Assembly (NCBI GenBank): GCA_020632235.1
Contig: JACKFY010000001.1
Span: 159,334-223,333, forward strand
Direction: 5' to 3'
Origin: Pseudomonadales bacterium
GTDB lineage: Bacteria; Patescibacteriota; Microgenomatia; UBA1400; PJMF01
DNA length: 64,000 nt
Shown piece after piece: positions 4,549 to 32,834 of this stretch. Position 1 is the first letter of the stretch; every line of letters begins with the position of its first letter. Below the pieces are notes generated by a model. That model was not told the DNA's origin and ran no database searches. It saw only the letters and a list, made by a program, of their open reading frames with translations. Both the position numbers and the translations under genes were made by a program.

Positions 4549-4549
4549 A

Positions 4550-8619: not shown

Positions 8620-8689
8620 GCTCTCAATAATATCAGTATTTTAGAAAATGTCAATAAATATCTTTCATAGGTATTCATAGGTTTGATTG

Positions 8690-9019: not shown

Positions 9020-9922
9020 TTATCTGATAGCGGCTCTACTTACCGGTCCATCCAACTCATTGGAGAAGCTAATCAGCTGACCGCCACTAGTAAAGGCGAT
9101 GGAGATGCTTGGTGTTTCTGTGGATTCGTAGACCTTAATACAGGGAACCCCATTGCCGTTGTAATACAAGCCCTCAACGTCTTTATTTAAGTCCTCGCTA
9201 CAGGTTTCAAGCGGTGGGTTATGCTGGACAGTTTGGGCTTCGCCTCTCCAAATGAAGAAATAATTTACCCTACCGTTACCACCATCTTTCCTACCAGTTT
9301 CCAATGCCAGCTTACTCAGATCAATGTCGCCAATAGCTGAGGAGTGTTTGGCAATAAAGCTTCTGGCAAGTCGTTCGACTTCCTCCTGAGAGTAATTTGC
9401 CGAGTAATCATATTCTTTGCCTTCACTAAACCAACGGCTGCCATCGATTTTGTATCCCCAAGTCCCGGGAGTTTCTTCTACCTGCAGGACATGATTAGTT
9501 TCAGGATCCACAATAAAGTAAGTTAAACCAACTATATAAGTCTCACCTTTAGCGGGAATAAGCTTATCTTCTTCCAAGCTATAAAAAGCGTTACTACACT
9601 CATATTCCACTTCCACAGTTGGCATTTCCAGGAAATCACGAACAGAGGCAATAGCTTTCTCTCGCTCTTCCACCGGCCGCGCCGTCAGAGAACATAGCTT
9701 TTCTCTCAATTCCTTGGTGGCTTGAGCAGTATGGTCCCGATATTTAGGGTCGGTACTGAGCTTTTCGGTGATCTCTTTGATCTCCTGAACCCTTTGGTTC
9801 TCAGTTTGTTGAGTTCTATAAGACTGGTATTTTGAACGCGTCACATTAAGCCCAAAGTAAATCACCACCAGGAGCAAAATAACCAGAGCTAATCGTTGAA
9901 AATTTTTCATTGTCATATTCAT
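9020..9922 (-). CDS. hypothetical protein with N-terminal signal-anchor (secreted or membrane-anchored)
   Basis: 300-aa ORF with an N-terminal hydrophobic segment LALVILLLVVIYFGL. No recognisable family. Confidence 0.5.
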   Translation of the reverse strand: MNMTMKNFQRLALVILLLVVIYFGLNVTRSKYQSYRTQQTENQRVQEIKEITEKLSTDPKYRDHTAQATKELREKLCSLTARPVEEREKAIASVRDFLEMPTVEVEYECSNAFYSLEEDKLIPAKGETYIVGLTYFIVDPETNHVLQVEETPGTWGYKIDGSRWFSEGKEYDYSANYSQEEVERLARSFIAKHSSAIGDIDLSKLALETGRKDGGNGRVNYFFIWRGEAQTVQHNPPLETCSEDLNKDVEGLYYNGNGVPCIKVYESTETPSISIAFTSGGQLISFSNELDGPVSRAAIR

Positions 9923-9989
9923 AATTATCCTCCTTTCCTCAAGGTTTGCCGATGTTAGCTTCGTTAGCCATCGGTTGTCAAATCTTCTC

Positions 9990-10055
9990 TCGGTTTCACT
10001 AAAATCACCCTTTTCACTTATTAGTGAAAGTACCCGATTTAGTGAAAATCACCAG
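9990..10055. promoter_or_regulatory. cluster of direct and inverted repeats (TTTCACT / AGTGAAA, AAAATCACC) in a divergent intergenic region
   Basis: The sequence TTTCACTAAAATCACCC-TTTTCACTTATTAGTGAAAG-...-TTAGTGAAAATCACC includes the perfect palindrome TTCACTTATTAGTGAA. It is a candidate operator, or origin-associated site, upstream of the 10156 ORF. Confidence 0.3.
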
Positions 10056-12941: not shown

Positions 12942-13013
12942 GGCCCCCGGGAGGATTCGAACCTCCAACCTACCGGTTAACAGCCGGGCGCTCTGCCATT
13001 GAGCTACAGGGGA
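12942..13013 (-). tRNA. tRNA-Asn (anticodon GTT), no encoded CCA, predicted 1:72 T-C mismatch
   Basis: The reverse complement reads TCCCCTG-TA-GCTC-AATGGCA-GAGC-G-CCCGG-CTGTTAA-CCGGT-AGGTT-GGAGG-TTCGAAT-CCTCC-CGGGGGC-C. This gives a cloverleaf with the GTT anticodon and a canonical T-loop, and the 3' end faces the recombinase pseudogene. Confidence 0.6.
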
Positions 13014-13492: not shown

Positions 13493-14511
13493 TAGCCAAT
13501 AGTTTTTTTCAAAAATGGCGTTTTACTGATCATAAACGACAAGAGAAAACTGGCTATAACACTCAAAACGATATGCATGAGGAGTGTGGGCGTGCTTACT
13601 TGAAACGATTCAGATAGCTTGAACCAATCCCACACCATGTCTTGGACAAATGGAGAAATAAGATACACACCAAACGTCAATCCAGCCAGCTGAGAGAGCA
13701 TACTTTGTGTGCCGTGAGAGAGAGACTGAAAGTAGGGTTCTTTTTTTTGAAAGAGAAGAAAAATGCTGATAGCTTGCATCGCAACAATGGGGTTGGTGTA
13801 GTCATAAAAGTAGGTGGGGCTCCAGTGGTTGGTAAAAAAACGGTAGCTGGTGAGCAAAAGTATCAAGAGTGAGGCGCTCAAAAATGTTGCCACAAGCCAC
13901 GTTTTTTTGACTAGATGCTGTGTGTACTCTAGGGCTTTGGGTGCGGTGTAGTAAAAGAGAAAAGGTATCCACAACACATAGAGAAAGTCACGATGCCACC
14001 AGGTGAGAAAGGGGGCAAAAAAAAGAGCTACCAGCCCAATGGTGTTTTTGGGTGAAAGTTGTGAAAATATACTACGCAGCAGAGGGGTGACAACGTACAG
14101 CCCAGCTATAATGAACAAAAAATAGAGGTGATACTGTGGTGCTTGGTAAAGCAGTGTGTGCTTAAGAAATGAGGGCGAGAGCATGCCTACCACGTTACTT
14201 TTATTAACCCAAAACAGATAAAACAGCCACCAGAACACAAGAGGAATAGCCACACGAGCAACTCTCTTTTTATAAAAAACACTCGCGGGCTCTTGTGCGT
14301 TAGGCTTGAGTAGTAGCGCTCCGCTCGCCATGATAAACACAGGCACGGCCCATCTGCTCAGGGCGTGGAGTATGTTGGTTGTCCACCAGTCCAGAGAGGG
14401 AATGCTGGTATAGAGATAGAGTAAACCAGCACTCGAGTGAATAGCCACTACCGCTACAATAGCTAGGATTTTGAGTACATCAAGGTAGATAGTGCGCTGC
14501 ATACAATACAA
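13489..14511 (-). CDS. acyltransferase family 3 integral membrane protein
   Basis: 340 aa with about 10 TM helices and an N-terminal YLDVLKILAIVAVVAIH motif typical of acyltransferase_3 (OatA-like) enzymes. Confidence 0.7.
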   Translation of the reverse strand: MYCMQRTIYLDVLKILAIVAVVAIHSSAGLLYLYTSIPSLDWWTTNILHALSRWAVPVFIMASGALLLKPNAQEPASVFYKKRVARVAIPLVFWWLFYLFWVNKSNVVGMLSPSFLKHTLLYQAPQYHLYFLFIIAGLYVVTPLLRSIFSQLSPKNTIGLVALFFAPFLTWWHRDFLYVLWIPFLFYYTAPKALEYTQHLVKKTWLVATFLSASLLILLLTSYRFFTNHWSPTYFYDYTNPIVAMQAISIFLLFQKKEPYFQSLSHGTQSMLSQLAGLTFGVYLISPFVQDMVWDWFKLSESFQVSTPTLLMHIVLSVIASFLLSFMISKTPFLKKTIGY

Positions 14512-14573
14512 AAGCCCCTCACTTTTTCACTTGGATTGTACCAGGAGCCAAAGTGAGGGATTATCTGTTTTTA

Positions 14574-15320
14574 TTAAAGATATTGATCGATCATCGGTTT
14601 GATCTGCTCGACGGGAAGTGCGCCAGAGATGAGTTCTTGAGCACCATCAGCAGTCATGATAAAGGTAGCGGGAGTACCGGTGACCCCGGCTGCCGTGCCT
14701 TCACTCAGCTGTGTTTTGACCAGATCTGCCATCTCACCACTATCAAGACACTCGGTGAATGCTGCTTCGTTTACACCTGCCTCTGTGGCGGCCTGGGTGA
14801 TTGACTCAGGTTCTAACTTACCACCCATTTCCTCATTGATGGCAAAGATAGCATCAGCATAGCTCCAAAACGCTTCTTCTCCACCTAATTTGGCTACACA
14901 CTCGCTGCCTTCAGCTGCTTTTTGGGCATCATCATGAAATGAGAGTGGGTAGTGCCTGTACACCAGGGCTATATCATCGCCATAGTCGGACAAGAGCTGC
15001 TTGGTTGTCGGGTGGAATCGCTGACAGTAGGGACACTCAAAGTCTGAGTACTCTACCAAGACAACAGGTGCATCGGGCCTACCAATGATGTGATCTTCAC
15101 CCGTGACTGGTGGTACAGCGGCTAGCTGCTCGGCGGTAGGGCCGGTCTCTGTGGGTGCTTGTGCTGTTGGGGTTGTGCCCAGGGCAGTGCCACCCAGAGA
15201 TCCTTCCTTGAGCATCTTGTTTTCCGTCCACATCGAGCCCATGAAAAACCCGAGGGCAAACGCAACGACTGCGATGATAACCATGAGTGGCGTGTTGCTT
15301 TGGTGTGTATCTGCTGGCAT
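14574..15320 (-). CDS. DsbA/BdbD-like thiol:disulfide oxidoreductase (thioredoxin fold, CPYC)
   Basis: An N-terminal TM anchor is followed by a FECPYCQRFHP active site and a DsbA-like helical insertion. Confidence 0.75.
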   Translation of the reverse strand: MPADTHQSNTPLMVIIAVVAFALGFFMGSMWTENKMLKEGSLGGTALGTTPTAQAPTETGPTAEQLAAVPPVTGEDHIIGRPDAPVVLVEYSDFECPYCQRFHPTTKQLLSDYGDDIALVYRHYPLSFHDDAQKAAEGSECVAKLGGEEAFWSYADAIFAINEEMGGKLEPESITQAATEAGVNEAAFTECLDSGEMADLVKTQLSEGTAAGVTGTPATFIMTADGAQELISGALPVEQIKPMIDQYL

Positions 15321-15409
15321 AGGTGCTTTCTATGTACGGTGTATTTATTACGTGTTGTATCTGCGAGTGATCAGTATAGAGGGCAATAGAGATTCTGACA
15401 AGAGAGTGT

Positions 15410-17011
15410 TTATTCTCTTGCTTCCCGTATTTCTACAGTATTGTTATCCTCAGACATCATTTCTTGATCGAAGGCGGCATCTTGTCTCATTGAGTCTTTT
15501 TGGGTCTCGATTACAGATGGTGGCGCTTGCATCACTTCTTGGGGTGCTACGACGGGTGCATCAATTTTTTGCTCTGTTACTGCCGGAGTAGCGGTAGGAC
15601 AGAATGCGCCTAACACATTGCACGTCATGCCGGACCGAGCCAAAAAGGCAGGATCTGCCACCCCAATAGCAGGAGAGGTGGGAAGCAGACGAAAATCAAA
15701 GTTTGCCATACCCACATAGAGTGGGTCTGCCTCTACTTTGTTGGGGAAGTCGCAAATTTCATGTCGACCACAGCCTGTATTTTGTCCTTCATTTGCCCAG
15801 ACTAGGTTGTGGTGGATGTCATCGTTGGCCATATTTTCTGGCACCCCTGCATATGCCCCACCGATCCCAAACCCATAGGTGCCATCGGTGTTTTTTCTAG
15901 TGTGAGTGAAGATGTTGTTTACTAGTGTGACCGATGGATTATGGTCTCCTTCTGAGTAAATGTTGATTCCCACTACTCTATTATGAAAAAAGGTGTTGTT
16001 AATTGCAGTAATTTGGGCTTGTCCGTCTGCAAACACTCCATTCAGTTCATTTTCGTACACAGAAGATTGAGTAATAGTGAGTGAGCTTTGATTTCCCGCT
16101 CGCACCCCACTTAATCCGTTGGAATACGCAGAAGATTGGCCAATAGTGAGTGAGCTTTGATCTACTAATGCAATACCGTATTGCTCATTATCATATACAG
16201 AAGATCTTGCAACTGTCGTACTGCTAGATCCATGTAATACTAATCCTTGGCGCCCATTTTCATATAGTGATGAGTCCAATATACTTACATTTGAGTTGTC
16301 ATGTACGTATACGCCATTATCACTACAGTTAGTTATAACAATGTTGCTTATTCTGCCTCTAGTATCATTGCCAAAACTAAAACAACTCGCCGTACTATTA
16401 TAAATACCCATATTTGAAATAATCAGGCCTCCTACTTCCGTTACCCGAAAGCCATCCACCCTACATCCCTGTGGTACCTCGGTTTTATTAAAGTCTATGC
16501 CCACATCACCCTCACCTTTGAGGTACACAGCCTTATCGCCAATATTGATAGAGAAGTTGTCGCATGTTTGACCCATCGCTTTGTAATACCCATTTTTGAT
16601 ATTGATGGTAGTTAGCCCCGTAGTAGGGGCGCTGTCTATTGCCTGTCTGATACCAGCAAACCCTACAAAATCACACCCAGGTGATTGTTCTGGACAAACA
16701 GTTAAATCTGGATTCCCAGTCCCCGGAGCAGTCTTTGCTTGTTGCCTAACATCTTGGCTAGAGCCCATCAAGAGCATGCTGGTTGCCATACCCACGGCCA
16801 GTATGAGAAATAGAAGTGAAGCAAATGCTCGCTTGGCGACTTGCTTATATGAGAGTGCTTTTGTGGTACTGGGACTGTGTTTTGAGCCGGGTGTTTCTGC
16901 TGCCGGCGGGTGTTTGTTACCTGAAACACCAGAAAAGGTGTTTTTGATGGTGGAGGGAGTAAAATTATGCATCAAGCATTTACTATGCACAAAGAGAAAG
17001 CCTTTTGTCAA
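15410..17011 (-). CDS. secreted right-handed parallel beta-helix repeat protein
   Basis: A signal-anchor is followed by repeated xxNGxxGVxxxxSSxxTIxxSSVYxN units characteristic of pectate-lyase-like beta-helix repeats. Confidence 0.6.
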   Translation of the reverse strand: MTKGFLFVHSKCLMHNFTPSTIKNTFSGVSGNKHPPAAETPGSKHSPSTTKALSYKQVAKRAFASLLFLILAVGMATSMLLMGSSQDVRQQAKTAPGTGNPDLTVCPEQSPGCDFVGFAGIRQAIDSAPTTGLTTINIKNGYYKAMGQTCDNFSINIGDKAVYLKGEGDVGIDFNKTEVPQGCRVDGFRVTEVGGLIISNMGIYNSTASCFSFGNDTRGRISNIVITNCSDNGVYVHDNSNVSILDSSLYENGRQGLVLHGSSSTTVARSSVYDNEQYGIALVDQSSLTIGQSSAYSNGLSGVRAGNQSSLTITQSSVYENELNGVFADGQAQITAINNTFFHNRVVGINIYSEGDHNPSVTLVNNIFTHTRKNTDGTYGFGIGGAYAGVPENMANDDIHHNLVWANEGQNTGCGRHEICDFPNKVEADPLYVGMANFDFRLLPTSPAIGVADPAFLARSGMTCNVLGAFCPTATPAVTEQKIDAPVVAPQEVMQAPPSVIETQKDSMRQDAAFDQEMMSEDNNTVEIREARE

Positions 17012-17071
17012 GCTTGAAAGAAAGCTGCGCAGTTCACTAGAAGGTAGGGTTTTTTACAGAGGTTATGTTTA

Positions 17072-17806
17072 GTGCTATACTTTTATTGTATGACAGATAA
17101 AACACTTTCTACACCAAGTAGTACGACCAGTGAGCCTCAGATGTATGTGGCTGAAGGGCAAAAGAAACGAAGTGTAAAAGATACCGTTGCTCGGATTGTG
17201 AAAGCTGCCAAGATAGGCGTGACGTTGGTACTACTAGCAATTTTTGTGTTTGGTGCCTACTCTGTGTGGCGGCTTGTCTCTCCGTCTTCTGGCACTGTGG
17301 CGGTTGATACTTCCCGCGAGAGTGTGGTGAGCAAGATCCAGAGCTTGCAGCGGGTCGAGACTACGCAATTTACGATAGAAAAAATTATCTCGGCTGGAAC
17401 AGAATCAAACAATAGGTTTGACGAGTTGTTGTTTGAAGACAGACTGTTGCTGGTGGCACACGGAGTAGTAACGGCGGGCGTGGACGTCTCTTCACTACAC
17501 AAAGATGACGTGACTGTTACTGGTAGCACACTCACACTTCGCCTGCCACCCACCAAGATCTTGACCACTACCCTTGATAACAACAAAACAACAGTGTATG
17601 ACCGTCAGCAGGGCTTTTTGATCCAGGCAGACAAAGACTTAGAAAGTACTGCTAGACAGGCAGCCCAAGAAGAAATAAGCAAAACCGCGTGTGAGAGGGA
17701 TATCCTGGTACAAGCTGCCACCAATGCCCAGACGATGTTTGAGCAGATGTTTTTGCTGGCAGGCTTTGAGAGGGTGGAGGTGCTGGTAGCAGCGGGGAGT
17801 TGCTAG
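17072..17806 (+). CDS. DUF4230-like membrane-anchored protein
   Basis: An N-terminal TM is followed by the pattern GVVTAGVDVS...LTLRLPPTKIL...D, which matches my recollection of DUF4230. Not verified. Confidence 0.45.
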   Translation: MLYFYCMTDKTLSTPSSTTSEPQMYVAEGQKKRSVKDTVARIVKAAKIGVTLVLLAIFVFGAYSVWRLVSPSSGTVAVDTSRESVVSKIQSLQRVETTQFTIEKIISAGTESNNRFDELLFEDRLLLVAHGVVTAGVDVSSLHKDDVTVTGSTLTLRLPPTKILTTTLDNNKTTVYDRQQGFLIQADKDLESTARQAAQEEISKTACERDILVQAATNAQTMFEQMFLLAGFERVEVLVAAGSC

Positions 17807-21297: not shown

Positions 21298-22494
21298 ATG
21301 ATCCTCACTGAGCATGAAGCAAAACAACTACTTGCTGCAGCACAGATTGCTGTTTCTCGGTCAGTTTTGATCACCAAAGAGCAGTTTGAAGACGCTCTAT
21401 ATTTTGAAACAACGAGTCACCTGCAGTTTCCTGCTTTTGCAAAAGCTCAAGTCTTGCATGGCAATAGAGCGCTGTCTGGACTTATCCAAAAAGTAGAAAC
21501 GGCCCAACAGCTGGATGATGTACTTACCAACCTTTTTTCTCTTTCAGATCAAAACAAGCAGCCTGTTACGAGCATATTACTAGAGGAGGCAATAGAGCAT
21601 GACGCTCAGCATTACTTGAGTGTAAGTTACAGTACGCGTGAGAGATCAGTGGTGATGCAGTACTCGGATGCCGGTGGGGTAGGGATGGATGAAAGGGGTG
21701 GGGAGATGCAGACGCACATCCTCTCGATTCTCACTCCGCCGACCAGCTTTCCTCTCAATCCAGAATTACTACCCCTCGTGCAACAACTCTGGCATGTTTT
21801 TACCCAGCATGACGCAACGCTGGTCGAGATCAATCCTTTAGTTCAGAATAATGGTGAGTGGGTGTGTTTGGACGCCAAGATAGAGCTTGATAGCGTTGCT
21901 GCCTTTCGACATTCAGAGTGGAGCGCCTATCCTGCACGAACAACTGCCGGTGCACCGCCAACAGAGCGTGAGCAAAAAGCCAAAGCGGTGAGTCGCTCTG
22001 ATCATCGAGGCGTGGCGGGCGAGAGCTTTTTAGAGTTTCCTGGCGGCGAGGTAGGCATTATGGCGTCTGGCGGTGGCGCTTCTCTTTTAGTAATGGACGC
22101 ACTGCTGTTGGTTGGTATCAAGCCGGCCAACTACACGGAGTACTCCGGCAACCCCACGCGCGAGAAAGTCCACCAGCTGACTGAGGTTGTCCTTTCTATT
22201 CCCCGTCTCAATGCACTTTTCGTGGTGGGGAGTAACGCCAACTTTACTGATATTTACGAAACACTGGCGGGAGTTGTTGATGGGTTTCTTGCCAGTGCGT
22301 ACGCATCGCAAGAAGGGTTTATCATCCTGATTCGCCGCGGTGGTCCGCGGTGGCAAGAGGCATTTGAGATGGTGCGTGAGCGGCTGGCAGACAGAAGTGT
22401 TATTTTAGAGCTGTTGGGGCCTGACGCCCCAGTGACGAGCACTGCCGGTATCTTGAAAGAATTGCTTGAGCAACAAGCAAAAAAGAAAGTATAG
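21298..22494 (+). CDS. succinyl-CoA synthetase beta-subunit-like ATP-grasp protein (possible citryl-CoA synthetase small-subunit homologue)
   Basis: It has an N-terminal MILTEHEAKQLL segment, FAKAQVLHGNR (compare VVKAQVHAGGRGK), LVEINPLV, and a CoA-ligase C-domain GIMASGGGASLLVMDAL. Confidence 0.8.
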   Translation: MILTEHEAKQLLAAAQIAVSRSVLITKEQFEDALYFETTSHLQFPAFAKAQVLHGNRALSGLIQKVETAQQLDDVLTNLFSLSDQNKQPVTSILLEEAIEHDAQHYLSVSYSTRERSVVMQYSDAGGVGMDERGGEMQTHILSILTPPTSFPLNPELLPLVQQLWHVFTQHDATLVEINPLVQNNGEWVCLDAKIELDSVAAFRHSEWSAYPARTTAGAPPTEREQKAKAVSRSDHRGVAGESFLEFPGGEVGIMASGGGASLLVMDALLLVGIKPANYTEYSGNPTREKVHQLTEVVLSIPRLNALFVVGSNANFTDIYETLAGVVDGFLASAYASQEGFIILIRRGGPRWQEAFEMVRERLADRSVILELLGPDAPVTSTAGILKELLEQQAKKKV

Positions 22495-22498
22495 ACGT

Positions 22499-23401
22499 AT
22501 GGCGTTTTTAGTTACCTCAGGCACCAAAGCACTCATCCAGGGCATGACCGGCAAAGAAGGGCAACGCGCGCTGGGGTGGATGCGCGCGGCTGGGACAGAG
22601 GTCTTGGCTGGCGTGACTCCTGGCAAGGGCGGGCAAGAGGTAGGCGGTGTGCCTGTGTTTGACAGTGTGGCAGAGGCTACGGTGGCTTTTCCCCAGATTA
22701 ACGCGACCACGCTCTATGTGCCGCCACGGTTTGTGCTCTCGGCGTTTCGTGAGGCAGCCCAGGCCGATATTCCTCTCATCCATATTTTTGCAGAAAACGT
22801 GCCGGTTAAAGACACAGCCGAGATGATCGAGCTCTCTGGTCAAAAAAACATTCGAGTGGTGGGGCCCAGCTCGGTGGGTGTTTTTAGCCCTGGTGTTGGC
22901 AGACTGGGCACGGCTGGTGGGGGGGATGAGAGTAACTTTTTGGCTCCGTCGGGGGTGGGTGGGGTGGCGATTATCTCAAAAAGCGGTGGGATGATCCCCA
23001 CGCTTGCTTTTCCACTGACGCAAGCAGGCATTGCCCAGACCACCGTGGTAGGCATTGGGGGTGATAGCCTGGTGGGTAGTACCTACGCAGATCTTCTCGA
23101 CCTCATCGCAGCTGACGGGCAAACAAAGGCACTTTTTATCATCGGTGAGATAGGTGGTAGTTATGAAGAACAACTAGCCGAGGCCATTATCCAGACCCAT
23201 TTTGCAAAACCAGTAGTAGCGCTCATCACGGGGCTGTTTGCCCAGACGCTGCCGCAAGGCTCTACCTTTGGTCACGCGGGGGCGATTGTGAGCAGGACTG
23301 AAGGGACGCGGGAGGGCAAGATCAAGGCTTTGCAACGCGCAGGGGTGACTATTTTGGATGATGCCAGTCAGGTGGCGAGGGTGGTGGGGGAAGTGTTGTA
23401 G
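22499..23401 (+). CDS. succinyl-CoA synthetase alpha-subunit-like protein (CoA-binding, catalytic His)
   Basis: It contains GVTPGKGGQEV, SKSGGM, GIGGD and the phospho-histidine loop GHAGAIV. Its start is 5 nt after the sucC-like stop. Confidence 0.85.
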   Translation: MAFLVTSGTKALIQGMTGKEGQRALGWMRAAGTEVLAGVTPGKGGQEVGGVPVFDSVAEATVAFPQINATTLYVPPRFVLSAFREAAQADIPLIHIFAENVPVKDTAEMIELSGQKNIRVVGPSSVGVFSPGVGRLGTAGGGDESNFLAPSGVGGVAIISKSGGMIPTLAFPLTQAGIAQTTVVGIGGDSLVGSTYADLLDLIAADGQTKALFIIGEIGGSYEEQLAEAIIQTHFAKPVVALITGLFAQTLPQGSTFGHAGAIVSRTEGTREGKIKALQRAGVTILDDASQVARVVGEVL

Positions 23402-23476: not shown

Positions 23477-26400
23477 ATGAAGCAAAAAAAACCAACAAGC
23501 AAAAACACCTTTGCAGATTTCACCAACCTATATTCACTCTCCAAGACTCTTCGGTTTGAGCTTGTCCCCTACAATGATGAAACAAGAACGATGCTTGGTG
23601 AGCATGACATTTCCCAAAAAGGAAAACTACGCAAGGAAAAATATGAACAGACTAAGCCTTTTATAGATAGATTGCATCGAGAGTTTGTACAAGAGGCTCT
23701 CCTAGATGTAAAGCTGGAAGAGTTAGCAGAGTACGCCCAATCATATGAGTTTTGGAAAAAAGATAAGAAAGGCTCAAAACAGAAAAAAGCACTTGAGTCT
23801 GCTGAAAAAGCTTTGCTGAAAGAAATAGGAGTATTATTTGATTCTCAGGGTAAAAAATGGGCAGAAGAATTTGCAGGTATTGAGGAAGTAAGTCTTAAGA
23901 AAAAAGATAAAGCTATTTTATTTGAAGAGGGCATTATGTCTGTGCTCAAGTATAAGTATGGAGAAGATCCAGAAAGTTTTGTACCAGGGGAAGATGGAGA
24001 GCAAGTCTCAATTTTTGATGACTGGAAGGGTTTTAGCGGTTATTTCACCAAGTTTTTTGAAACGAGGAAAAATTTTTATACAACTGATGGGAAAGCAACA
24101 GAAGTCGCAACACGAATAGTCAATAACCTTCGTCTTTTTTTGGATAATAGGGAAACTGCTAAAAATGTTTTGGGGAAATTATCTCAGAAAGATATAGATA
24201 CTGTCGGTAACAATTTTGATCTGGATGTAACAAATATCTTCACCATTGACTATTACAACCGACTCTTACTGCAAGATGGTATTGATCATTACAATATAAT
24301 TCTTGGCGGTGAGACGAAAGATAACGGAGAGAAACTACAAGGGCTCAATGAACTAATCAATCTTTGGAAACAGCAAAATCCAGGCGAGAAGCCTCCTTTC
24401 TTCAAAAAACTACAAAAGCAGATCTTGAGTCCAAAAGAAGCGTTTATAGAGCAAATTGAAAGTGATGAGGAGTTGCGGCAAGAACTGCAAGGTTTGTTGA
24501 CTGCATATGAAAAACATATTCTGCCTGGCAGAGATTTATTTCAAAACTTAAAAAATGATACGCAAGACTATGATTTAGATAGTATTTATTTCAACTCGTT
24601 TGGTCTCAACACGTTGATTCAAAAATGGGTGGGTGATAAGTCAGAGTTTATTAATAACCTCTACGATGTGCTTTCACAAAAAGAGATAAAACAGATATAC
24701 GAAGGATTTGGATTTGGTATAGCAAAACGGACAGGTGAGAATACTAAGTTTCCAGATTTTGTACGACTCTCAGACCTGCAAGCAGCATTGTTGCGCACTC
24801 CTACAGACCATAAACTTTGGAAAGAGTCATATTACTCTGACAAAGTTGTATTAGCAGATGATAAAAAGAATACTACTTGGCAACAATTCTCAACTATTTT
24901 CATACATGAGTTTGAGCAACAGTTTCAACGCAAGATAAGAGGAGAAGATAATCAAAGTATTACTGCAGGTTTGGACACTTCTTATAAAGAGTTGGTAGAG
25001 ATATTGCCAAGCATGCAGGCACCAACTAGAGAGAATAAAGTGGTTATCAAGAATTTTGCCGATGATCTACTGCGCACCTATCAAATGGCAAAGTACTTTG
25101 CTCTAGAGAAAAAGAGGTCTTGGGTGAGCGGCTTGAGCGAAGACCCAGCTTTTTATGCAGATAAAAATTTTGGTTACTACACTCATTTTTATGAAAATGC
25201 ATATGAAGATATCGTCCAGCCCTACAATAGGATCAGAAATTACTTGACCAAGAAAAATTATGGAGAGGATAAATGGAAGTTGAACTTCAATAAAAGTAAT
25301 TTATTGGGTGGTTGGCCAGATAGCCCCCCTGGAAATACACAGTATGGGGGATTGCTGTTTCGCAAAGATGAAAAGTACTTTTTGGGCGTGACAGATTACC
25401 CTAAAGTATTTGATAAAACACAAAATCCAGAGGCATTTAAAACAAGTGGAGAGACATTTGAAAAGATGGTCTACAAACAAATTGATGCCAAGACTTTGTA
25501 CGGCTCCGTCTACAAAGGTTTGTACGGCTCGAAGTACTCTGATGACAAGGAAGAAATGAGCGACAATGAATTAATAGCAAGAGTGAAAGAGGTACTACTC
25601 ACCAAAGTAGATTCATTTCCAAAACTTCACCAAATAATTAAGAAAATCGAAGCTGGTGCATATACTGATGCAAAAGAATTGGCTCGAGAGATAAGCGCTG
25701 GCAATTTTTATAACATCGATTTTATTCAGGTTTCTGCTGACTACTTAAAGCAAGGCCGTTATGTTTCTGGGAAAAATCAAAAAAATCTTTTCCTCTTCCA
25801 AATCAAAAACAAAGACTGGAATAAAGGAGCGAAAAAAACACAGGCATCTAAAAACCTTCATACCCTGTACTTTGAGGCACTCTTCTCAGAAGAGAATAAA
25901 CAAGCAAACTTCCCATTCAAACTTAACGGACAAGCAGAGTTGTTCTTTAGACCAAAGGTAAGTAAAAGTATTCTGGGTACCAAAAAGGATAAGCAGGGTA
26001 AAGAAGTTATAGACCATAAAAGATTCAACAAAGATATGTACTACTTTCATGTGCCTTTGACAGTAAACAGAACTCAGGAAGATACAAATGCATATCGTTT
26101 CAATAGAGAGATAAACGAATTTCTTGCAGACAAGCCAAATATCAACATCATTGGACTTGACCGAGGGGAGAAACACCTTATTTACTACTCAGTGATTGAT
26201 CAGAAAGGCGAGCGAATCGATGCCGGGAGTTTTAATACTATTAACGGGAAAAATTATAAAGAATTGCTTGAACAAAAAGCTGAAGAGAGGAAGAAAGCAA
26301 AACAAGACTGGCAGAGTGTGGAACAGATCAAAGACTTGAAAAAAGGCTACTTATCACTCGTGGTGCGAAAGGTTGTAGATCTCGTGATAGCACACAATGC

Positions 26401-27418
26401 CATCATCGTCATGGAAGACCTCAATATGCGGTTCAAACAGATCAGGGGTGGTATAGAACAAAGTGTGTATCAACAATTTGAGAAAGCACTCATAGACAAA
26501 CTCTCTTTTTTGGTCAATAAAGGTGAGAAAGATCCAGAATCAGCAGGGTACCTGCTACGCGCATATCAACTAGCAGCTCCTTTTGAGTCATTTCAAAAGA
26601 TGGGAAAACAGACAGGGATAATTTTTTACACAACTGCCAGCTATACCTCCAAGATAGATCCGCTGACTGGATGGCGACCCAATATCTACCTCAAGTACTC
26701 TAATCAAGAGAAGGCGAAAAAAGATATTGCCAAGTTCAAGAATATTGTGTTTGACTCAGTGAAAAATAGATTTGAATTCACCTATGATCTGGCAGATTTT
26801 TATAACAAAAAAGGCAAGATTGAGTTTCCTCAAAAAAGAGAATGGACAGTCTGCTCAAATGTAGAGCGTTATGCGTGGGACAAAAGGCTCAGTGGCAACA
26901 AAGGTGGCTATACGCATTATCCAGACCTAACTGACGGCAAAGCAGAAAATATGTTTAAAGAAAACGCTATCTCAAACTTCAAAAATCTATTTGAAAGTGT
27001 GGGAATAGATATACGCGGTGATATTCAAGCACAAATTGCACAGTTAGATACAAAAGATAACAAACAATTTTTCTCAACTTTTATGTATCTGTTCCGCTTG
27101 ATACTCCAAATCAGAAATACCAACTCTAACGAGACAACTGGTAGTGATGACAACGACTATCTGCAATCACCAGTTGAGCCATTTTTTGACACGCGCAGAT
27201 CTGCAGACTTTGCTGAAGGCCTGCCACAAAATGGTGATGAAAACGGGGCATACAATATTGCCAGGAAAGGCATATTCATCCTAGACAGACTCAGTGAGTT
27301 TGAGAACTTGACCGATAACGAGAAGAAGAAACTCAAATATCCAGATATCTTGGTGAGGAATGTGGAGTGGGATGCATTTGCAACAGAGAGTAAGATGTTT
27401 CTATCATCAATTAGATGA
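23477..27418 (+). CDS. cas12a: Cas12a (Cpf1), type V-A CRISPR effector nuclease
   Basis: 1313 aa. The N-terminus YSLSKTLRFELVPY matches the Cas12a WED-I signature. RuvC-I is IGLDRGEKHLIYYSVID, RuvC-II is IVMEDLNMRFK and RuvC-III is NGDENGAYNIARKG. It is followed by cas4-cas1-cas2 and an array whose repeats end in the Cas12a handle TCTACTTTTGTAGAT. Confidence 0.95.
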   Translation: MKQKKPTSKNTFADFTNLYSLSKTLRFELVPYNDETRTMLGEHDISQKGKLRKEKYEQTKPFIDRLHREFVQEALLDVKLEELAEYAQSYEFWKKDKKGSKQKKALESAEKALLKEIGVLFDSQGKKWAEEFAGIEEVSLKKKDKAILFEEGIMSVLKYKYGEDPESFVPGEDGEQVSIFDDWKGFSGYFTKFFETRKNFYTTDGKATEVATRIVNNLRLFLDNRETAKNVLGKLSQKDIDTVGNNFDLDVTNIFTIDYYNRLLLQDGIDHYNIILGGETKDNGEKLQGLNELINLWKQQNPGEKPPFFKKLQKQILSPKEAFIEQIESDEELRQELQGLLTAYEKHILPGRDLFQNLKNDTQDYDLDSIYFNSFGLNTLIQKWVGDKSEFINNLYDVLSQKEIKQIYEGFGFGIAKRTGENTKFPDFVRLSDLQAALLRTPTDHKLWKESYYSDKVVLADDKKNTTWQQFSTIFIHEFEQQFQRKIRGEDNQSITAGLDTSYKELVEILPSMQAPTRENKVVIKNFADDLLRTYQMAKYFALEKKRSWVSGLSEDPAFYADKNFGYYTHFYENAYEDIVQPYNRIRNYLTKKNYGEDKWKLNFNKSNLLGGWPDSPPGNTQYGGLLFRKDEKYFLGVTDYPKVFDKTQNPEAFKTSGETFEKMVYKQIDAKTLYGSVYKGLYGSKYSDDKEEMSDNELIARVKEVLLTKVDSFPKLHQIIKKIEAGAYTDAKELAREISAGNFYNIDFIQVSADYLKQGRYVSGKNQKNLFLFQIKNKDWNKGAKKTQASKNLHTLYFEALFSEENKQANFPFKLNGQAELFFRPKVSKSILGTKKDKQGKEVIDHKRFNKDMYYFHVPLTVNRTQEDTNAYRFNREINEFLADKPNINIIGLDRGEKHLIYYSVIDQKGERIDAGSFNTINGKNYKELLEQKAEERKKAKQDWQSVEQIKDLKKGYLSLVVRKVVDLVIAHNAIIVMEDLNMRFKQIRGGIEQSVYQQFEKALIDKLSFLVNKGEKDPESAGYLLRAYQLAAPFESFQKMGKQTGIIFYTTASYTSKIDPLTGWRPNIYLKYSNQEKAKKDIAKFKNIVFDSVKNRFEFTYDLADFYNKKGKIEFPQKREWTVCSNVERYAWDKRLSGNKGGYTHYPDLTDGKAENMFKENAISNFKNLFESVGIDIRGDIQAQIAQLDTKDNKQFFSTFMYLFRLILQIRNTNSNETTGSDDNDYLQSPVEPFFDTRRSADFAEGLPQNGDENGAYNIARKGIFILDRLSEFENLTDNEKKKLKYPDILVRNVEWDAFATESKMFLSSIR

Positions 27419-27905
27419 TTGTTGTTTTTGACTCTGATTGCACTTCTGTAATGGCTCGTAATCACGAAAAGCTCTCAAGAGAAATGACACGCTTGGACCT
27501 GGTTGAAGCTATTACAATAGCTACGACAATGATAGTGTATGGGGAAAAACAACATGGACTTGCAAATCAAAGCATGCCGCGTTCTAAGCGAATAAGAATG
27601 ATGGAGTACCTTAAAAATGTGTTGGTTCTTAATATCACTGGTGATGCGCCAAAAATATATGGACAGCTATGCTTTGATTTAACTAACTGATTTAAAGAAA
27701 AGTTTAAAAAAGCATGCAAACAAAAAGAGGCAAAGAAAAAGGCTAAGGAAGAAGTAAAAAAATGCATAATGACATCTGGACGGCTGCTATTTGCATAGAG
27801 AACAAAGCTTTACTATATTCAAGAGATCAAGATTTTGCGAAAATAAAAGCCGTAGACGATAGAGTATCTTGGGTTGACTGCAGAGATCTGTTATCTAATA
27901 GCTAA
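27415..27905 (+). pseudogene. PIN-domain (VapC-like) nuclease gene disrupted by an A-rich insertion with an in-frame stop and a frame change
   Basis: The N-terminal piece (27415-27690, MIVVFDSDC...APKIYGQLCFDLTN) ends at TGA. The C-terminal piece (about 27759-27905, MHNDIWTAAICIENKALLYSRDQDFAKI...) is a canonical VapC C-terminus but lies in the -1 frame. The two are separated by about 70 nt of lysine-codon-rich sequence containing an A7 run. The start overlaps the cas12a stop (ATGA). Confidence 0.6.
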
Positions 27906-28467
27906 TTTTATGCACTCCTACATCCAACTCTCAAAACTCAATGATTTCTTGTTTTGCCCGTACTCTGTTTACTTGAAATCCATCTACGACGGTTTCAAGT
28001 CAGACACCTATCATGCTACTCCGCAAAAACGAGGCAAAATCCATCACAAAGCGATAGATGAAGGCACCTATTCTTCTTCAACCCGCTACCTGCAGGGGCT
28101 TTCTGTCTATTCTGAAAAATATAACATAGCGGGGAAAATAGATATTTACGATACAGAGAAAAAAGCTCTAGTCGATCGAAAATACAAAGTAAAAGCCGTC
28201 TACGACGGGCATCGTTTTCAACTGTTTGGACAGTACTTTTGTATGGCGGAGCGAGGGTATGAGGTTGAAAAACTGTTTTTACACTCATTATCAGACAATA
28301 AACGCTATGAGGTGGCACTACCAGAGGGAATATGGCTTGAAAAGTTTGAGCAATTGGTTGTACGCATGCAGAACCCAGAAAACTATGAAAAAGACCCCGA
28401 TGTAACAATTGAAAAATGTCAAAATTGTATCTATAGTGTGCTGTGCCCGTATGCTAAGTCTGCCTGA
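27874..28467 (+). CDS. cas4: Cas4 (RecB-like nuclease with 4Cys Fe-S cluster)
   Basis: A single Cys (FLFCPYS) lies near the N-terminus and a C-terminal C-x2-C-x5-CPY cluster (CQNCIYSVLCPY) follows. It is positioned between cas12a and cas1. The true start may be the internal Met (MHSYIQL) at 27910. Confidence 0.85.
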   Translation: MTAEICYLIANFMHSYIQLSKLNDFLFCPYSVYLKSIYDGFKSDTYHATPQKRGKIHHKAIDEGTYSSSTRYLQGLSVYSEKYNIAGKIDIYDTEKKALVDRKYKVKAVYDGHRFQLFGQYFCMAERGYEVEKLFLHSLSDNKRYEVALPEGIWLEKFEQLVVRMQNPENYEKDPDVTIEKCQNCIYSVLCPYAKSA

Positions 28468-29407
28468 TTTTATCGAAAAAAAGATTTTAGTTGTTCCTAT
28501 AGAAGAAAAACTGGAGAGTCAGTTGAAATTACAAGTTGGCAACATAGTTTTAATGAAAGAAGGAAAAGTTATTGATAAGGTATCGTGCCACATTGTGTTT
28601 TGCATGGTGATTATTGGCGATTGCTCTATCACAACCAAGCTCATCCGAGAGCTTCAAAGCTATGGTATATCGGTTTTCTTACTCAACAGGTCTTTCAAGT
28701 TTATTACCAGCATACATGCACATGCAGAAGGCAACTATCAACTGAGGGAAAAACAGTATTTCCTTGATAAAGATACAGAGCTTTTGCTTTCCAAGCAGTT
28801 TGTCCAGAATAAGATAGATAACCAATGGGGCATCTTGCAGAAGACTGGACGGCTTGATCTTGAGCAGGCATATCGAGACACAACAGAAAAAGTGACGCTA
28901 GCCAACTCCATCGATTCTCTCAGAGGCCTAGAAGGGTCCTTTGCTTCTCGTTATTTTTCTGGTATTTTTGATGAAATTGGCTGGCTTCGCCGTGCTCCCA
29001 GAACAAAGGAAGATATAGCGAATGTCTTGCTTGATATAGGGTACACGTTTGTGTTCAATTATGTAGATGCACTTTTGCGCTTGTTTGGCTTTGACACATA
29101 CAAAGGTGTGTATCATCAGTTATTTTTCCAAAGACAGTCTCTTTCGTGCGATCTGATGGAGCCAATGCGTCCGATGATTGACTACCAACTCAGAAAGTCG
29201 TTCAATTTAGGCCAAATACAAGAAAAAGACTTTGTATTCAAAAACGAATCATTTCGTTTTAAGGACTACTCAGTCTCTGGGTCGTATTCCAATATTTGGT
29301 TTGATTTGATCATGAAGAAAAGAGAAGACATGTATCAATTCATATTTGGGTACTATCGGTGTTTTCAAAATCCAGAAAAGTATGAGTATGCTCAGTTCAA
29401 AGTATGA
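28409..29407 (+). CDS. cas1: Cas1 integrase
   Basis: Cas1-like sequence throughout. It overlaps the cas4 3' end and is followed by cas2 with a 4-nt overlap. Confidence 0.9.
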   Translation: MKNVKIVSIVCCARMLSLPDFIEKKILVVPIEEKLESQLKLQVGNIVLMKEGKVIDKVSCHIVFCMVIIGDCSITTKLIRELQSYGISVFLLNRSFKFITSIHAHAEGNYQLREKQYFLDKDTELLLSKQFVQNKIDNQWGILQKTGRLDLEQAYRDTTEKVTLANSIDSLRGLEGSFASRYFSGIFDEIGWLRRAPRTKEDIANVLLDIGYTFVFNYVDALLRLFGFDTYKGVYHQLFFQRQSLSCDLMEPMRPMIDYQLRKSFNLGQIQEKDFVFKNESFRFKDYSVSGSYSNIWFDLIMKKREDMYQFIFGYYRCFQNPEKYEYAQFKV

Positions 29408-29685
29408 TTGTTGTTGCCTACGATATCAGTAAGACGTCAAAGAGAACGAAGTTCTCCAAATTTTTAGAAAGGTACGGAGACCGCATTCAGTACTCGGTTT
29501 TTGTGTGCAAAAATAGCAAGCGAATTATGGAAAATATCACCACCGAGATAGAACATCACTTTGCCAAGTATTTTGATGCTGAAGACAGCGTGTTTGTGTT
29601 CACTACGTGTCAGAGTTGTGACAAGAAAACGCTCAAATATGGCAATGCTTCTCACTATGAAAAAGATGTGATATATTTTGGCTAG
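29404..29685 (+). CDS. cas2: Cas2
   Basis: 93-aa MIVVAYDIS... Cas2 fold signature, immediately upstream of the leader and array. Confidence 0.9.
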   Translation: MIVVAYDISKTSKRTKFSKFLERYGDRIQYSVFVCKNSKRIMENITTEIEHHFAKYFDAEDSVFVFTTCQSCDKKTLKYGNASHYEKDVIYFG

Positions 29686-29894
29686 CGTGCTCATTAACAT
29701 AGTTTTTTTACACAAAGGTATAAGTCTTTCTGTGTTGAATAAACCTCGGTCTTTCTATTTTGATATATTTATACTCATTTATAATATATTGTGTGTATAT
29801 ATCAATGTAGTCTCTTCCTGAGTCAGTCAAAAATGTCCAAGTTATATGTGCAGCTTTTTGTATCATTTTTGATTGACTCACCAATATTTAGGCA
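29686..29894 (+). promoter_or_regulatory. AT-rich CRISPR leader with candidate sigma70-like promoter (TTGATA ... TATAAT)
   Basis: A roughly 210-nt AT-rich segment between the cas2 stop and the first repeat. TTGATA sits near 29760 and TATAAT near 29780, with about 14-16 nt spacing. Confidence 0.4.
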
Positions 29895-31760
29895 GTTTAT
29901 TCAAAGTAGTCGATTTCTACTTTTTTGTAGATTCTCGAGCTCAGCGAAGTTTATTCAAAGTAGTCGATTTCACTTTTGTAGTTGAGTGTTTATTCAAAGT
30001 AGTCGATTTCTACTTTTGTAGATAGATGTTACCGTTGACCAGTCGCTCAGTTTATTCAAAGTAGTCGATTTCTACTTTTGTAGATAAGTCGTTTGAGGCT
30101 ACACATTCCACGTAGTTTATTCAAAGTAGTCGATTTCTACTTTTGTAGATTATACCCTGTCGTAATGTAGCGAGTTAATTCAACGAGAAGTTTATTCAAA
30201 GTAGTCGATTTCTACTTTTGTAGATTTTTAACAATGACAGTCCTACAGAAGACGTTTATTCAAAGTAGTCGATTTCTACTTTTTGTAGATCTTTAGTAAA
30301 AACATGATTCCGAGTTTATTCAAAGTAGTCGATTTCTACTTTTTTAGATCGTATAGACTTCTCAATCAGTGAGTTAATTTAGTTTATTCAAAGTAGTCGA
30401 TTTCTACTTTTGTAGATGCGCGTATGATGGCATGGATATATGCAAAAGTTTATTCAAAGTAGTCGATTTCTACTTTTGTAGATAAATAGTCATCTTTCTT
30501 TGTAGTCGATTTCTACTTTTGTTTCTGTTTATTCAAAGTAGTCGATTTCTACTTTTGTAGATAGATGAGCTAAAAGCGTCTGTAAAATGTAGTTTATTCA
30601 AAGTAGTCGATTTCTACTTTTGTAGATTTAAATAATGTTTATTCAAAGTAGTCGATTTCTAGAGAAAAGCTACCTCGAGTTTATTCAAAGTAGTCGATTT
30701 CTACTTTTGTAGATATCGATGTGTAGTGAGTGGGTATTGGTGGTGTTTATTCAAAGTAGTCGATTTCTACTTTTGTAGATAAATGTCCTCTGTTTGTCTA
30801 AACAGTTTATTCAATTAGTCGGTTTATTCAAAGTAGTCGATTTCTACTTTTGTAGTTTATTCAAAGTAGTCGATTTCTACTTTTGTATGAAGAGGAGGAT
30901 ATCTACATTAGTTTATTCAAAGTAGTCGATTTCTACTTTTGTAGATAATTGAAAGTTGTAGCGTTCTATTTAATAGTTTATTCAAAGTAGTCGATTTCTA
31001 CTTTTTGATGCTCGCAGTTAAAAAACAGGTTGGTGATAAGTTTAGTCGATTTCTACTTTTGTAGATTGTAGATGGAGCAGCTTAAAGCTCGTTGATGGTT
31101 TATTCAAAGTAGTCGATTTCTACTTTTGTAGATCACCAGGCTGGCTGGTATTGTTGACAGTTTATTCAAAGTAGTCGATTTCTACTTTTGTAGATAGTGC
31201 TGACCTGTCATCGAATGACGTCATGTTTATTCAAAGTAGTCGATTTCTACTTTTGTAGATCTCGAGAAGATTTTTCTTTATCAAGGGTTTATTCAAAGTA
31301 GTCGATTTCTACTTTTGTAGATATTCTTCTAATGATTTTGATCCTTATCCAGTTTATTCAAAGTAGTCGATTTCTACTTTTGTAGATTTTGTTTATAGTG
31401 AGCTAAAATTTGGTTTATTCAAAGTAGTCGATTTCTACTTTTGTAGATTACCAGTTTATTATTCTTCAAGATAACAATTCGTTTATTCAAAGTAGTCGAT
31501 TTCTACTTTTGTATATTCGAAAAAACCACCTTCTATAACTCCGTTTATTCAAAGTAGTCGATTTCTACTTTTGTAGATATATATGACTTATTTATTGCTT
31601 TTGAGTTTATTCAAAGTAGTCGATTTCTACTTTTGTAGATACTACAAGACCAATATTGATAAGGCAGTTTATTCAAAGTAGTCGATTTCTACTTTTGTAG
31701 ATGTGGCACTGCTACTGATTTACTTCTTGGTTTATTCAAAGTAGTCGATTTCACCCCATC
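29895..31760 (+). CRISPR. Type V-A CRISPR array, about 30 repeats of GTTTATTCAAAGTAGTCGATTTCTACTTTTGTAGAT (36 nt), transcribed in the same direction as the cas genes
   Basis: Direct reading of the sequence. Typical units have 23-32 nt spacers. The 3' part of the repeat forms the Cas12a crRNA hairpin UCUAC-UUUU-GUAGA-U. The terminal repeat, from about 31730, is truncated after GATTTC. Confidence 0.95.
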
Positions 31761-32098
31761 GCCCACCGCACAATTCCTACCACTGCGATGGTGTATACAA
31801 CGAGCCCTAAAAACTTCCTCCAAGGGCAAACTCCCTCAAAGATTTCCAGAAGTGCCCAGTAGATGATGGTGATATAGGATGCTGCCCGAAAGAACGGATG
31901 TAGCTGAGTGAACAAGTGATTTGTCACAAAAAGCCCAATAAGCGTTGTAAACCAAGCCAATAGCGGAGCGTTTGCCTTTTGGGCGATGACAACATTTCCC
32001 TCTTTATCAGTGAAGAATGCTCGAATAGAGGTACGTAGTGCGTGATGCATCTTTTTACTATAGCACTTGTCCTCACCGCGCACTATAATGAACTGCAT
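31751..32098 (-). CDS. hypothetical small membrane protein
   Basis: 115-aa ORF with two or three hydrophobic helices. Its stop codon lies inside the terminal degenerate repeat and its 5' end overlaps the start of the next gene on the opposite strand. It may be shorter (Met at residue 17). Confidence 0.4.
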   Translation of the reverse strand: MQFIIVRGEDKCYSKKMHHALRTSIRAFFTDKEGNVVIAQKANAPLLAWFTTLIGLFVTNHLFTQLHPFFRAASYITIIYWALLEIFEGVCPWRKFLGLVVYTIAVVGIVRWAMG

Positions 32099-32834
32099 GT
32101 CTGCAGGACTTCACTTTGACACTACTGTTTCAACTACTGCATCAGACGGTAGTCACCTCCTTCGTGGCAAGGCACTTACCGAGTGTATAGATGATGCAGA
32201 CTTTGTCAGTACATTTTTTCTCTCGCTGACTGGTCGTGAGCCAACCCAGGTAGAGTCTCGGTTGCTCAACGCTATGTTGGTAGCGTCCCTTGACCATGGG
32301 GTAGAGCCGTCATCTATGTTTGTCCCTAGAGTGGTAGCCTCGACGGGTAACGAGATGCTTCATTGCATGGCTACTTCACTCTTGGCGCTTGGGCCCCTGC
32401 ACGGTGGGGCTATCACCGGGGCAATGGAGATGTTCTACAGCCTCAAAGACAAAGAAGATAAAGAGCAAGCGTGTGTGCAGCTGGTAGAAGAGTTTCGCGC
32501 GAAAAAAAAACGAGTGCCAGGATATGGACATCCAAAGTACAAAGACAAAACAACCGGTGACCCACGCGCCCAGCAACTACTGCAGATGGCAGAAAAGGGA
32601 GGTCTTGATACTTCAGTTACCATGACCGCGCGAATTTTGGAAAATACGCTGGAATGGAAACTCAACAAAGTATTGGTGCTCAATATTGACGGGGCAATGG
32701 CAGCGCTTTTAACCACGTTTGGCATTGCGCCAGAGGCAGGAAACGGTATATTTGGGGTAGCACGCGTGGCTGGTAGTATTGCCCACATCGTAGAAGAACA
32801 AGAGAGTGATGCTGGTGTGAGAAGGCTAGCATAA
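32067..32834 (+). CDS. short citrate-synthase-family protein (citryl-CoA lyase-like)
   Basis: It has LVASLDHG (compare the citrate synthase LxxADHE) and VPGYGHPKYKDKTTGDPRAQQL (compare GFGHRVYKxxDPRA), and ends FGVARVAGSIAHIVEE. At 255 aa it corresponds to the CCL/small citrate-synthase-domain size. Confidence 0.65.
   Translation: MSSPRTIMNCMSAGLHFDTTVSTTASDGSHLLRGKALTECIDDADFVSTFFLSLTGREPTQVESRLLNAMLVASLDHGVEPSSMFVPRVVASTGNEMLHCMATSLLALGPLHGGAITGAMEMFYSLKDKEDKEQACVQLVEEFRAKKKRVPGYGHPKYKDKTTGDPRAQQLLQMAEKGGLDTSVTMTARILENTLEWKLNKVLVLNIDGAMAALLTTFGIAPEAGNGIFGVARVAGSIAHIVEEQESDAGVRRLA

Follow-up and report, generated by a model that had tools for sequence, protein, structure and literature searches.

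Organization of the locus

The locus described here lies on contig JACKFY010000001.1 of the metagenome-assembled genome (MAG) GCA_020632235.1, deposited as "Pseudomonadales bacterium", within a stretch of 64,000 nucleotides (positions 159,334 to 223,333 of the forward strand) that was analysed as a whole and is referred to as the window, with positions counted from its first letter. [quoted passage not shown] The effector gene cas12a (23477-27418) encodes a protein of 1313 aa, which starts ...FADFTNLYSLSKTLRFELVPY... and was assigned by hidden Markov model (HMM), domain and catalytic-residue matches. Following the disrupted gene (27415-27905) are cas4 (27910-28467, 185 aa), cas1 (28451-29407, 318 aa), which overlaps cas4 by 17 nt, and cas2 (29404-29685, 93 aa), which overlaps cas1 by 4 nt. 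The leader (29686-29894, 29.7% GC) is identical in four assemblies and contains a promoter-like site and an inverted repeat, while the array (29895-31752) comprises 20 perfect 36-nt repeats and ~11 aberrant units and closes with a truncated 23-nt terminal repeat (31730-31752) that adjoins sequence of host-like GC content, the same junction being present in another assembly, L006.

The original prediction, made from the letters of the window alone, of a complete type V-A locus was borne out, as every element was found in or near its predicted place and the HMM matches, catalytic residues, repeat handle and lack of an anti-repeat all fit. Its statement that the gene junctions overlap holds for cas4/cas1 and cas1/cas2, but cas12a overlaps a 91-aa open reading frame (ORF) and not cas4. 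The locus is very likely an intact type V-A system, probably active, on the chromosome of a Microgenomates-group (Woesebacteria/Pacebacteria-like) bacterium of the candidate phyla radiation (CPR), a reading that draws on the gene identities, the catalytic residues, the fold of the repeat, the lack of a tracrRNA, a context seen in three assemblies and newest spacers that differ between samples. Its architecture is ordinary, and it is already annotated in GenBank, where the exact 1313-aa protein is present as MCB9801678.1 ([quoted passage not shown], on a 271-kb contig), making it an uncharacterised Cas12a of a known type. The special value first attached to it does not survive, given that its UUUU repeat loop is the norm of its clade and that the protein had already been deposited and annotated as Cas12a.

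The adaptation genes are recognizable by family models and motifs alike. Cas4 scores 204 bits with the type-V-specific model TIGR04328 and retains four Fe-S cysteines (C16, C170, C173 and C179) as well as intact RecB motifs. Cas1 scores 288 bits with the type V model TIGR04329, just below its cutoff of 300, and 144 bits with the generic cas1 model (cutoff 72), and all of the motifs that are invariant among its relatives, the catalytic ones included, are kept. Cas2 scores 45 bits, above threshold.

The gene between cas12a and cas4 was missed in the original prediction. Its N-terminal piece is the 91-aa ORF (27415-27690), which overlaps the cas12a stop by 4 nt and ends at an in-frame TGA (27688-27690), followed by a frameshift near an A-run, and its C-terminal part (27762-27905) lies in another frame and reads MHNDIWTAAICIEN...DFAKIKAV; it is broken in all assemblies. 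The stitched sequence stays below the cutoffs both of PF01850 (19.3 bits, cutoff 23.6) and of the VapC model NF047863 (22 bits, cutoff 140). An intact homolog of 156 aa occupies the same position in one related locus (L053, 4329-4799), where it likewise overlaps cas12a by ATGA and precedes cas4, whereas in ~60 other related loci cas12a is directly followed by cas4, with no PIN-like gene. A role of the 91-aa ORF as a general conserved V-A accessory gene was rejected, as it is found in only 2 of ~62 loci. Because the ~60 other related loci lack it, the PIN-like gene reads as a sporadic passenger that has become degraded in the window locus.

The Cas12a effector

With TIGR04330, the NCBIfam equivalog model of Cas12a, the 1313-aa protein scores 724.1 bits (cutoff 300). 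Its Pfam matches are REC1, RuvC_1 and NUC, the Nuc (TNB) domain (PF18510) reaching 88.5 bits, and a scan of family models gave no match to an HNH domain. When all PDB sequences were searched, the best matches were exclusively Cas12a chains (E 1e-156 to 1e-111). In the alignment with FnCas12a, D895 in RuvC-I (IGLDRGE), E980 in RuvC-II (MEDLN) and D1254 in RuvC-III (GDENGAY) correspond to D917, E1006 and D1255, and the Nuc arginine R1213 (motif QIRN) corresponds to R1218; all four residues are invariant across an alignment of 28 relatives. The Cas12a N-terminal signature and the three RuvC motifs of the original prediction are hence upheld by the HMM, the PDB matches and the FnCas12a alignment, and the comparison with Cas12a families that it had proposed as a check leaves the RuvC Asp/Glu residues in place and the score far above the cutoff. 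By this likeness, the protein would be expected to make staggered, RNA-guided cuts in double-stranded DNA (dsDNA).

An effector of the RNA-targeting Cas12a2 or Cas12a3 type in place of a DNA-cutting Cas12a is extremely unlikely. Such an identity might be considered in view of the Cas12a-type repeat combined with a divergent PAM-interacting (PI; PAM, protospacer adjacent motif) region, of the incomplete H843/K852/K869 triad, a trait of both Cas12a2 and Cas12a3 (PMC13594972), and of a second cas12-like ORF in some related CPR loci. Cas12a2 and Cas12a3, which have the same type of repeat and handle as the window locus, carry zinc-ribbon or tRLD inserts, share just 10-20% identity with Cas12a and are devoid of the Nuc/TNB domain (PMC13594972). 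The window protein, in contrast, is a full Cas12a with no second effector in the window, matches the equivalog and the Nuc model at the scores given above, retains the conserved Nuc arginine and aligns end to end with Cas12a structures. With the Nuc domain present and the alignment to Cas12a running over the full length, the Cas12a2/Cas12a3 identity was ruled out and can be taken as effectively refuted.

Second cas12-like ORFs of 1011-1165 aa were seen directly after cas12a in five related CPR loci (L015, L045, L059, L063 and L074), their N-terminus reading M..F.NLYEV.K. Type V effectors that are co-encoded beside Cas12a have been reported (PMC7757703, PMC6509639), and these ORFs are probably such effectors of the literature, either Cas12a2/a3-like or "V-L".

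Compared with the well-known Fn, As and LbCas12a systems, the window locus has the same cas12a-cas4-cas1-cas2-leader-array operon, an effector with a single RuvC site and a Nuc domain in which the D/E/D residues and the Arg are kept, and a 36-nt repeat ending in UCUAC-N4-GUAGAU, with no tracrRNA, spacers of ~25-30 nt and a probable 5'-TTV PAM. It differs from them in that its Cas12a is only ~25-31% identical to the solved orthologs, has a short WED-III segment without an equivalent of Fn H843 and a PI region that the Pfam PI model fails to recognise and in which both canonical PAM lysines are replaced, and in the additional broken PIN-like gene after cas12a. Much closer is the Cas12a clade of the CPR/Patescibacteria, made up of the NCBI-annotated Cas12a of Peregrinibacteria, Moranbacteria, Roizmanbacteria and Uhrbacteria together with metagenomic V-A families (PMC7757703, PMC6509639), whose members are 42-53% identical to the window protein and share its gene order, the same short WED-III segment with V-I-[ND]-H-K-R-[YF] and the same [A/G]AUUUCUACUUUUGUAGAU handle. 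Within that clade the window protein sits in a minority sub-clade, characterized by GWPDSPEGNTQY and a shorter alternative PI segment, and the GC content of its host (49%) is unusually high as compared with that of the relatives' cas12a genes.

Repeat, handle and pre-crRNA processing

The repeat, GTTTATTCAAAGTAGTCGATTTCTACTTTTGTAGAT (36 nt), occurs in 20 perfect copies, and its 25-nt core is matched 26 times, with 0 matches expected by chance. In the orientation of the array each repeat carries the handle at its 3' end, reading ...GUCGAUUUCUACUUUUGUAGAU, that is UCUAC-UUUU-GUAGAU, which agrees with the UCUAC-N3-5-GUAGAU definition for V-A repeats (PMC7757703). The 19-nt GAUUUCUACUUUUGUAGAU folds into the canonical 5-bp stem with a UUUU loop (minimum free energy, MFE, -4.8 kcal/mol, z = -4), as had been predicted for the 3' half of the repeat. 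Folding of the repeat, likewise proposed as a check, gave a divided answer: the processed handle is canonical, but the full 36-nt repeat prefers the hairpin AAAGUAG/CUACUUU (MFE -7.6 kcal/mol), which sequesters the 5' strand of the handle. The crRNA that had been proposed, 5'-AGAUUUC..., was a misreading; the DNA reads ...GTCGATTTC..., and the correct form is (C)GAUUUC/CGAUUUC.

The UUUU loop had been pointed out as uncommon, but ~40 of the 46 arrays beside related cas12a genes carry exactly [A/G]ATTTCTACTTTTGTAGAT, and four-nucleotide loops were the commonest V-A type in a survey of 69,117 arrays (PMC7757703). As a distinguishing trait the loop was therefore rejected, being the norm among the arrays of related cas12a genes. 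The Cpf1 repeats of Parcubacteria and Peregrinibacteria also have UUUU loops.

A search with the reverse complement of the repeat (<=3 mismatches) matched the array alone, and inverted-repeat scans for an anti-repeat returned only chance-level partial matches inside coding sequence. With no anti-repeat outside the array, a tracrRNA was rejected and no tracrRNA-like element is present, in line with what had been predicted.

The segment of WED-III that bears the RNase triad of FnCas12a (H843/K852/K869) is ~16 residues shorter in the window protein. In the alignment there is no His at H843, K869 is replaced by D846, beside which lie H847, K848 and the invariant R849, and "IKDKRF" reads "IDHKRF". 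That the missing His is a lesion of the window gene was rejected, because the whole CPR clade shares the feature. Cas12a2 and Cas12a3 have no canonical triad and yet process their own crRNA via Lys/Arg at analogous positions (PMC13594972), so that, by analogy, self-processing stays the likeliest reading for the window Cas12a as well. The single-effector processing of the original prediction accordingly stands as an expectation, qualified by the clade-wide absence of the Fn H843 equivalent.

The PAM-interacting region

The PI region of the window Cas12a is non-canonical, with GWPDSPPGNTQY at residues 612-623 and YKQIDAKTLYGSVYKG at 666-681, and is the one trait, held in common with a few relatives, that sets an otherwise ordinary locus apart. 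In the sub-clade, the PAM loop "GWDKNKE" (GWxxxK motif) is swapped for an invariant "GWPDSP.GNTQY", so that P617 of the window protein stands at the position of As K548 / Fn K613, and the K607-bearing "PD..KM.PKV.FS..." has given way to a shorter conserved "YKQ[IV]DAKTLYGSVYKGLFGTKYSDD...", the "PKV" motif of As K607 / Fn K671 being absent. Consistent with that, the Pfam model of the Cpf1 PI domain (PF22222) matches neither the window protein nor its nearest relative even at E<=1, as opposed to 81-112 bits in ordinary members of the clade. The sub-clade accounts for 11 of the 120 top homologs, which are ~50% identical to the window protein, and a profile of the variant segment retrieved 24 proteins from 1.84 billion cluster representatives (15 at E<=1e-10), all of them Cas12a-sized and with the segment at the same position. 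An AlphaFold model of residues 575-885 (WED-II/PI/WED-III) has a mean predicted local distance difference test (pLDDT) score of 59, and its top Foldseek matches are Cas12a, at a template modelling (TM) score of only 0.35.

Evidence on the PAM comes from a sub-clade locus, L013, whose Cas12a is 51% identical to that of the window and carries the same PI motifs, and whose array (13943-17120) has 52 repeats. Of its four newest spacers, two have exact matches in one IMG/VR contig, in which a third has a match with 3 mismatches; the 5' flanks of these protospacers are TTTTG|, CTTC| and GTTC|, all of them 5'-TTV, the chance of three such flanks being ~2.5e-4. The targeted contig (L091, IMGVR_UViG_3300009690_000065) is that of a tailed phage and carries genes for a large terminase, a portal/adaptor, a primase-helicase and an exonuclease, with the sites lying in the terminase and primase-helicase genes; in a collection of 50,697 phage genomes, the 51 spacers of L013 have no match. 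For the window's own spacers no protospacer was found in the window (<=4 mismatches) or among the same 50,697 phage genomes, IMG/VR holds no match to the three newest spacers of the other assemblies, and the window repeat has no match there either. The three TTV-flanked protospacers of L013 imply that the sub-clade most likely reads 5'-TTV, and by analogy the PAM of the window Cas12a is probably conventional.

It has to be noted that members of the sub-clade strongly conserve the replacement sequence, and that even close orthologs are known to differ in their PAMs (PMC7261169). Together with the lack of a PF22222 match and the loss of both canonical lysines, this could mean that the window Cas12a reads a PAM other than TTV/TTTV, or does so very loosely. 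Such altered target recognition is nevertheless unlikely, as the three natural protospacers of L013 are all flanked by 5'-TT[G/C], although they are just three and come from a relative of 51% identity. In a tentative and somewhat doubtful proposal, the sub-clade has swapped the canonical PAM module (the PI helices with K607, and the GWxxxK loop) for a smaller, differently built one that still selects 5'-TTV. If true, PAM reading would have found a separate structural solution within Cas12a, and the new module could differ in PAM stringency, engineering behaviour or anti-CRISPR sensitivity.

Further variants of the GWxxxK loop, e.g. "GWSSEFETYGS" and "KYTTRAIIF", were noticed in other CPR homologs (P0050, P0063, P0070 and P0080; P0060, P0061 and P0090). 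Variation in the CPR Cas12a clade appears to concentrate at the WED-II/PI junction.

Array disorder, leader and spacer turnover

The predicted array of 36-nt repeats is confirmed by its 20 perfect copies, with spacers mostly of 25-32 nt, but it is irregular, and ~11 of its ~31 units are aberrant. These include variants in the length of the loop T-run, a deletion of a single nucleotide, stem-breaking point changes, repeats shortened to 17-25 nt, fragments with the 3' part alone and two spacerless repeat-repeat fusions, whereas related arrays are perfectly regular (e.g. 52/52 and 36/36 identical repeats). The aberrant units are unevenly spread, with 11/22 in the leader-proximal two thirds vs 1/10 in the distal third (Fisher p = 0.05). 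The first repeat has an extra TT in the window, but four other assemblies have it in perfect form, each with a different first spacer. The array is disordered where the population varies most and regular where it is clonal, while mutational decay would strike the old distal end first, which points to a possible artefact of the assembly consensus. The 23-nt terminal repeat, in contrast, is real: it ends at 31752, exactly at the GC step, and the junction is reproduced in the independent assembly L006. Since the newest spacers differ although the cas genes are >99.9% identical, acquisition would be recent or ongoing, which suggests continuing spacer adaptation in the population.

A number of observations weigh against an intact and active system, and they are best considered together. 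Besides the aberrant third of the array, the PIN-like neighbour is a pseudogene, which amounts to some decay in the locus; the handle-hiding fold of the repeat is unlike that of 38/38 related repeats, whose MFE structures keep the canonical handle; the effector has no equivalent of Fn H843, no canonical PAM lysines and no Pfam PI domain; protospacers were found neither for the window spacers nor for the three newest spacers of the other assemblies in the collections named above; and no relative with an empty insertion site was found when the upstream gene was compared with species-representative genomes other than the window's own, in which its relatives are <=41% identical.

Some of these observations could be explained by a decaying or inactive relic, in which the array is scrambled and truncated, a neighbour is a pseudogene, the fold of the repeat hides the handle and interference has been lost. 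The repeat-repeat fusions and cut repeats, the terminal truncation reproduced in L006, the stop and frameshift of the PIN-like gene in all assemblies and a fold of the repeat that is unique among 39 would be in keeping with this. A relic is very unlikely all the same, because the four cas ORFs are intact with conserved catalytic residues, the aberrant units cluster at the young, leader-proximal end where decay predicts the opposite, four other assemblies have a perfect first repeat, and the difference in newest spacers between samples with nearly identical cas genes speaks for recent acquisition. An intact and probably active system is therefore preferred.

The promoter-like site of the leader lies at 29760-29787. 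Farther downstream, a 17-nt inverted repeat, TGAGTCAGTCAAAAATG / CATTTTTGATTGACTCA (29819-29835 / 29864-29880), was observed, 94% complementary with a spacing of 28 nt and ending 14 nt 5' of the first repeat. Every assembly retains this element, which could bind a protein or have a regulatory function.

The genomic island and its host

The cassette forms an island of 36.4% GC between flanks of 49.4% and 48.5%, with sharp steps at 23,400 and 31,752. The low-GC island of the original prediction is thereby confirmed, with flanks of 48-49% that fall slightly under the 50-55% it gave. In the sub-clade, the cas12a genes have 28-34% GC and lie in contigs of 36-39% GC, which fits a donor of lower GC content, and horizontal transfer from a lower-GC CPR lineage is the probable origin of the cassette. 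The transfer claimed earlier is plausible in view of the island, though it stays an inference, no genome with an empty site having been found.

The sharp GC steps at both ends, and the conflicting MAG labels (Pseudomonadales vs Woesebacteria), might also be taken to mean that the cassette is an assembly chimera, foreign to the host genome. The left junction, however, is reproduced in two Logan assemblies of other runs (L006 and L007) and the right junction in one of them (L006), these assemblies being 99.8-99.9% identical to the window with essentially no indels outside the array. As the junctions recur in independent assemblies from other samples, the contig is not chimeric, and the conflict of labels is a naming problem, so that a chimera has next to no probability. 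The locus is part of the core chromosome, upstream of alaS, rpoB, rpoC, fusA and tuf.

Parts of the locus are also present in GCA_020429005.1, a second MAG of the same population, which is labelled "Candidatus Woesebacteria bacterium". The nearest named relatives of RpoC' (47855-51541), at 72-76% identity, are Pacebacteria, Woesebacteria, Microgenomates and Patescibacteria, several of them on contigs of ~1.0-1.4 Mb, and a few sister records share the "Pseudomonadales" label. By these relatives of RpoC', the contig is placed in Microgenomates/CPR and "Pseudomonadales bacterium" is likely a taxonomic mislabel of CPR MAGs in GenBank.

Proposed mechanism and significance

In the mechanism proposed for this system, the leader would drive transcription of the array, following which Cas12a would bind the 3' handle of the repeat, (G)AUUUCUACUUUUGUAGAU, and trim the pre-crRNA. 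The loaded effector would then survey dsDNA for a T-rich PAM on the 5' side, most likely TTV as judged from the sub-clade relative, and form an R-loop, after which both strands would be cut by the single RuvC site with the Nuc domain assisting. Cas4-Cas1-Cas2 would in turn add spacers of ~25-30 bp at the leader end.

For the most part the locus changes nothing, as it is one more Cas12a locus in the CPR, a group already known for type V-A systems. Its value lies in a small Cas12a lineage with a conserved, non-canonical PI region that apparently still reads TTV, a candidate for structural work and PAM engineering, in the population-level turnover of spacers in an uncultured Microgenomates bacterium, and in the host-phage link that L013 provides for an uncultured CPR lineage. 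It also flags the "Pseudomonadales bacterium" mislabel on CPR MAGs in NCBI, and it cautions that the consensus may garble the CRISPR arrays of long MAG contigs.

Neighbouring genes

The cassette lies between ATP-grasp/citrate-binding and CoA-binding/ligase genes (21298-23401) and a citrate-synthase-family, citryl-CoA-lyase-like gene (32067-32834). These three flanking genes, interrupted by the CRISPR island, resemble an ATP-citrate lyase (ACL) or a citryl-CoA synthetase plus lyase, and in a distant relative (L003) the three ACL-like genes are contiguous. Their best homologs in species-representative genomes are only ~40% identical and come from Anaerolineales, Sphaerochaetaceae and Chthoniobacterales, so that the cluster is unusual for the gene content of a CPR bacterium. 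A hydrophobic ORF of 115 aa (31751-32098, - strand) of host-like GC content separates the array from the lyase gene, its stop overlapping the truncated terminal repeat; the ORF matches no family, is not called by the gene caller in L006 and is possibly spurious.

A second defence block of low GC content (39.6%) was noted at positions 1-10000 of the window. It is a type I restriction-modification system, with HsdS at 4550-5710, HsdM at 6928-8619 and a gene with a Bro-N domain (6039-6935) between them, accompanied by three ORFs without a family match (2931-3701, 3703-4548 and 9020-9922), and a tRNA-Asn gene lies nearby (12942-13013). As the restriction-modification genes are also low in GC, a low GC content is typical of the defence genes in the window.

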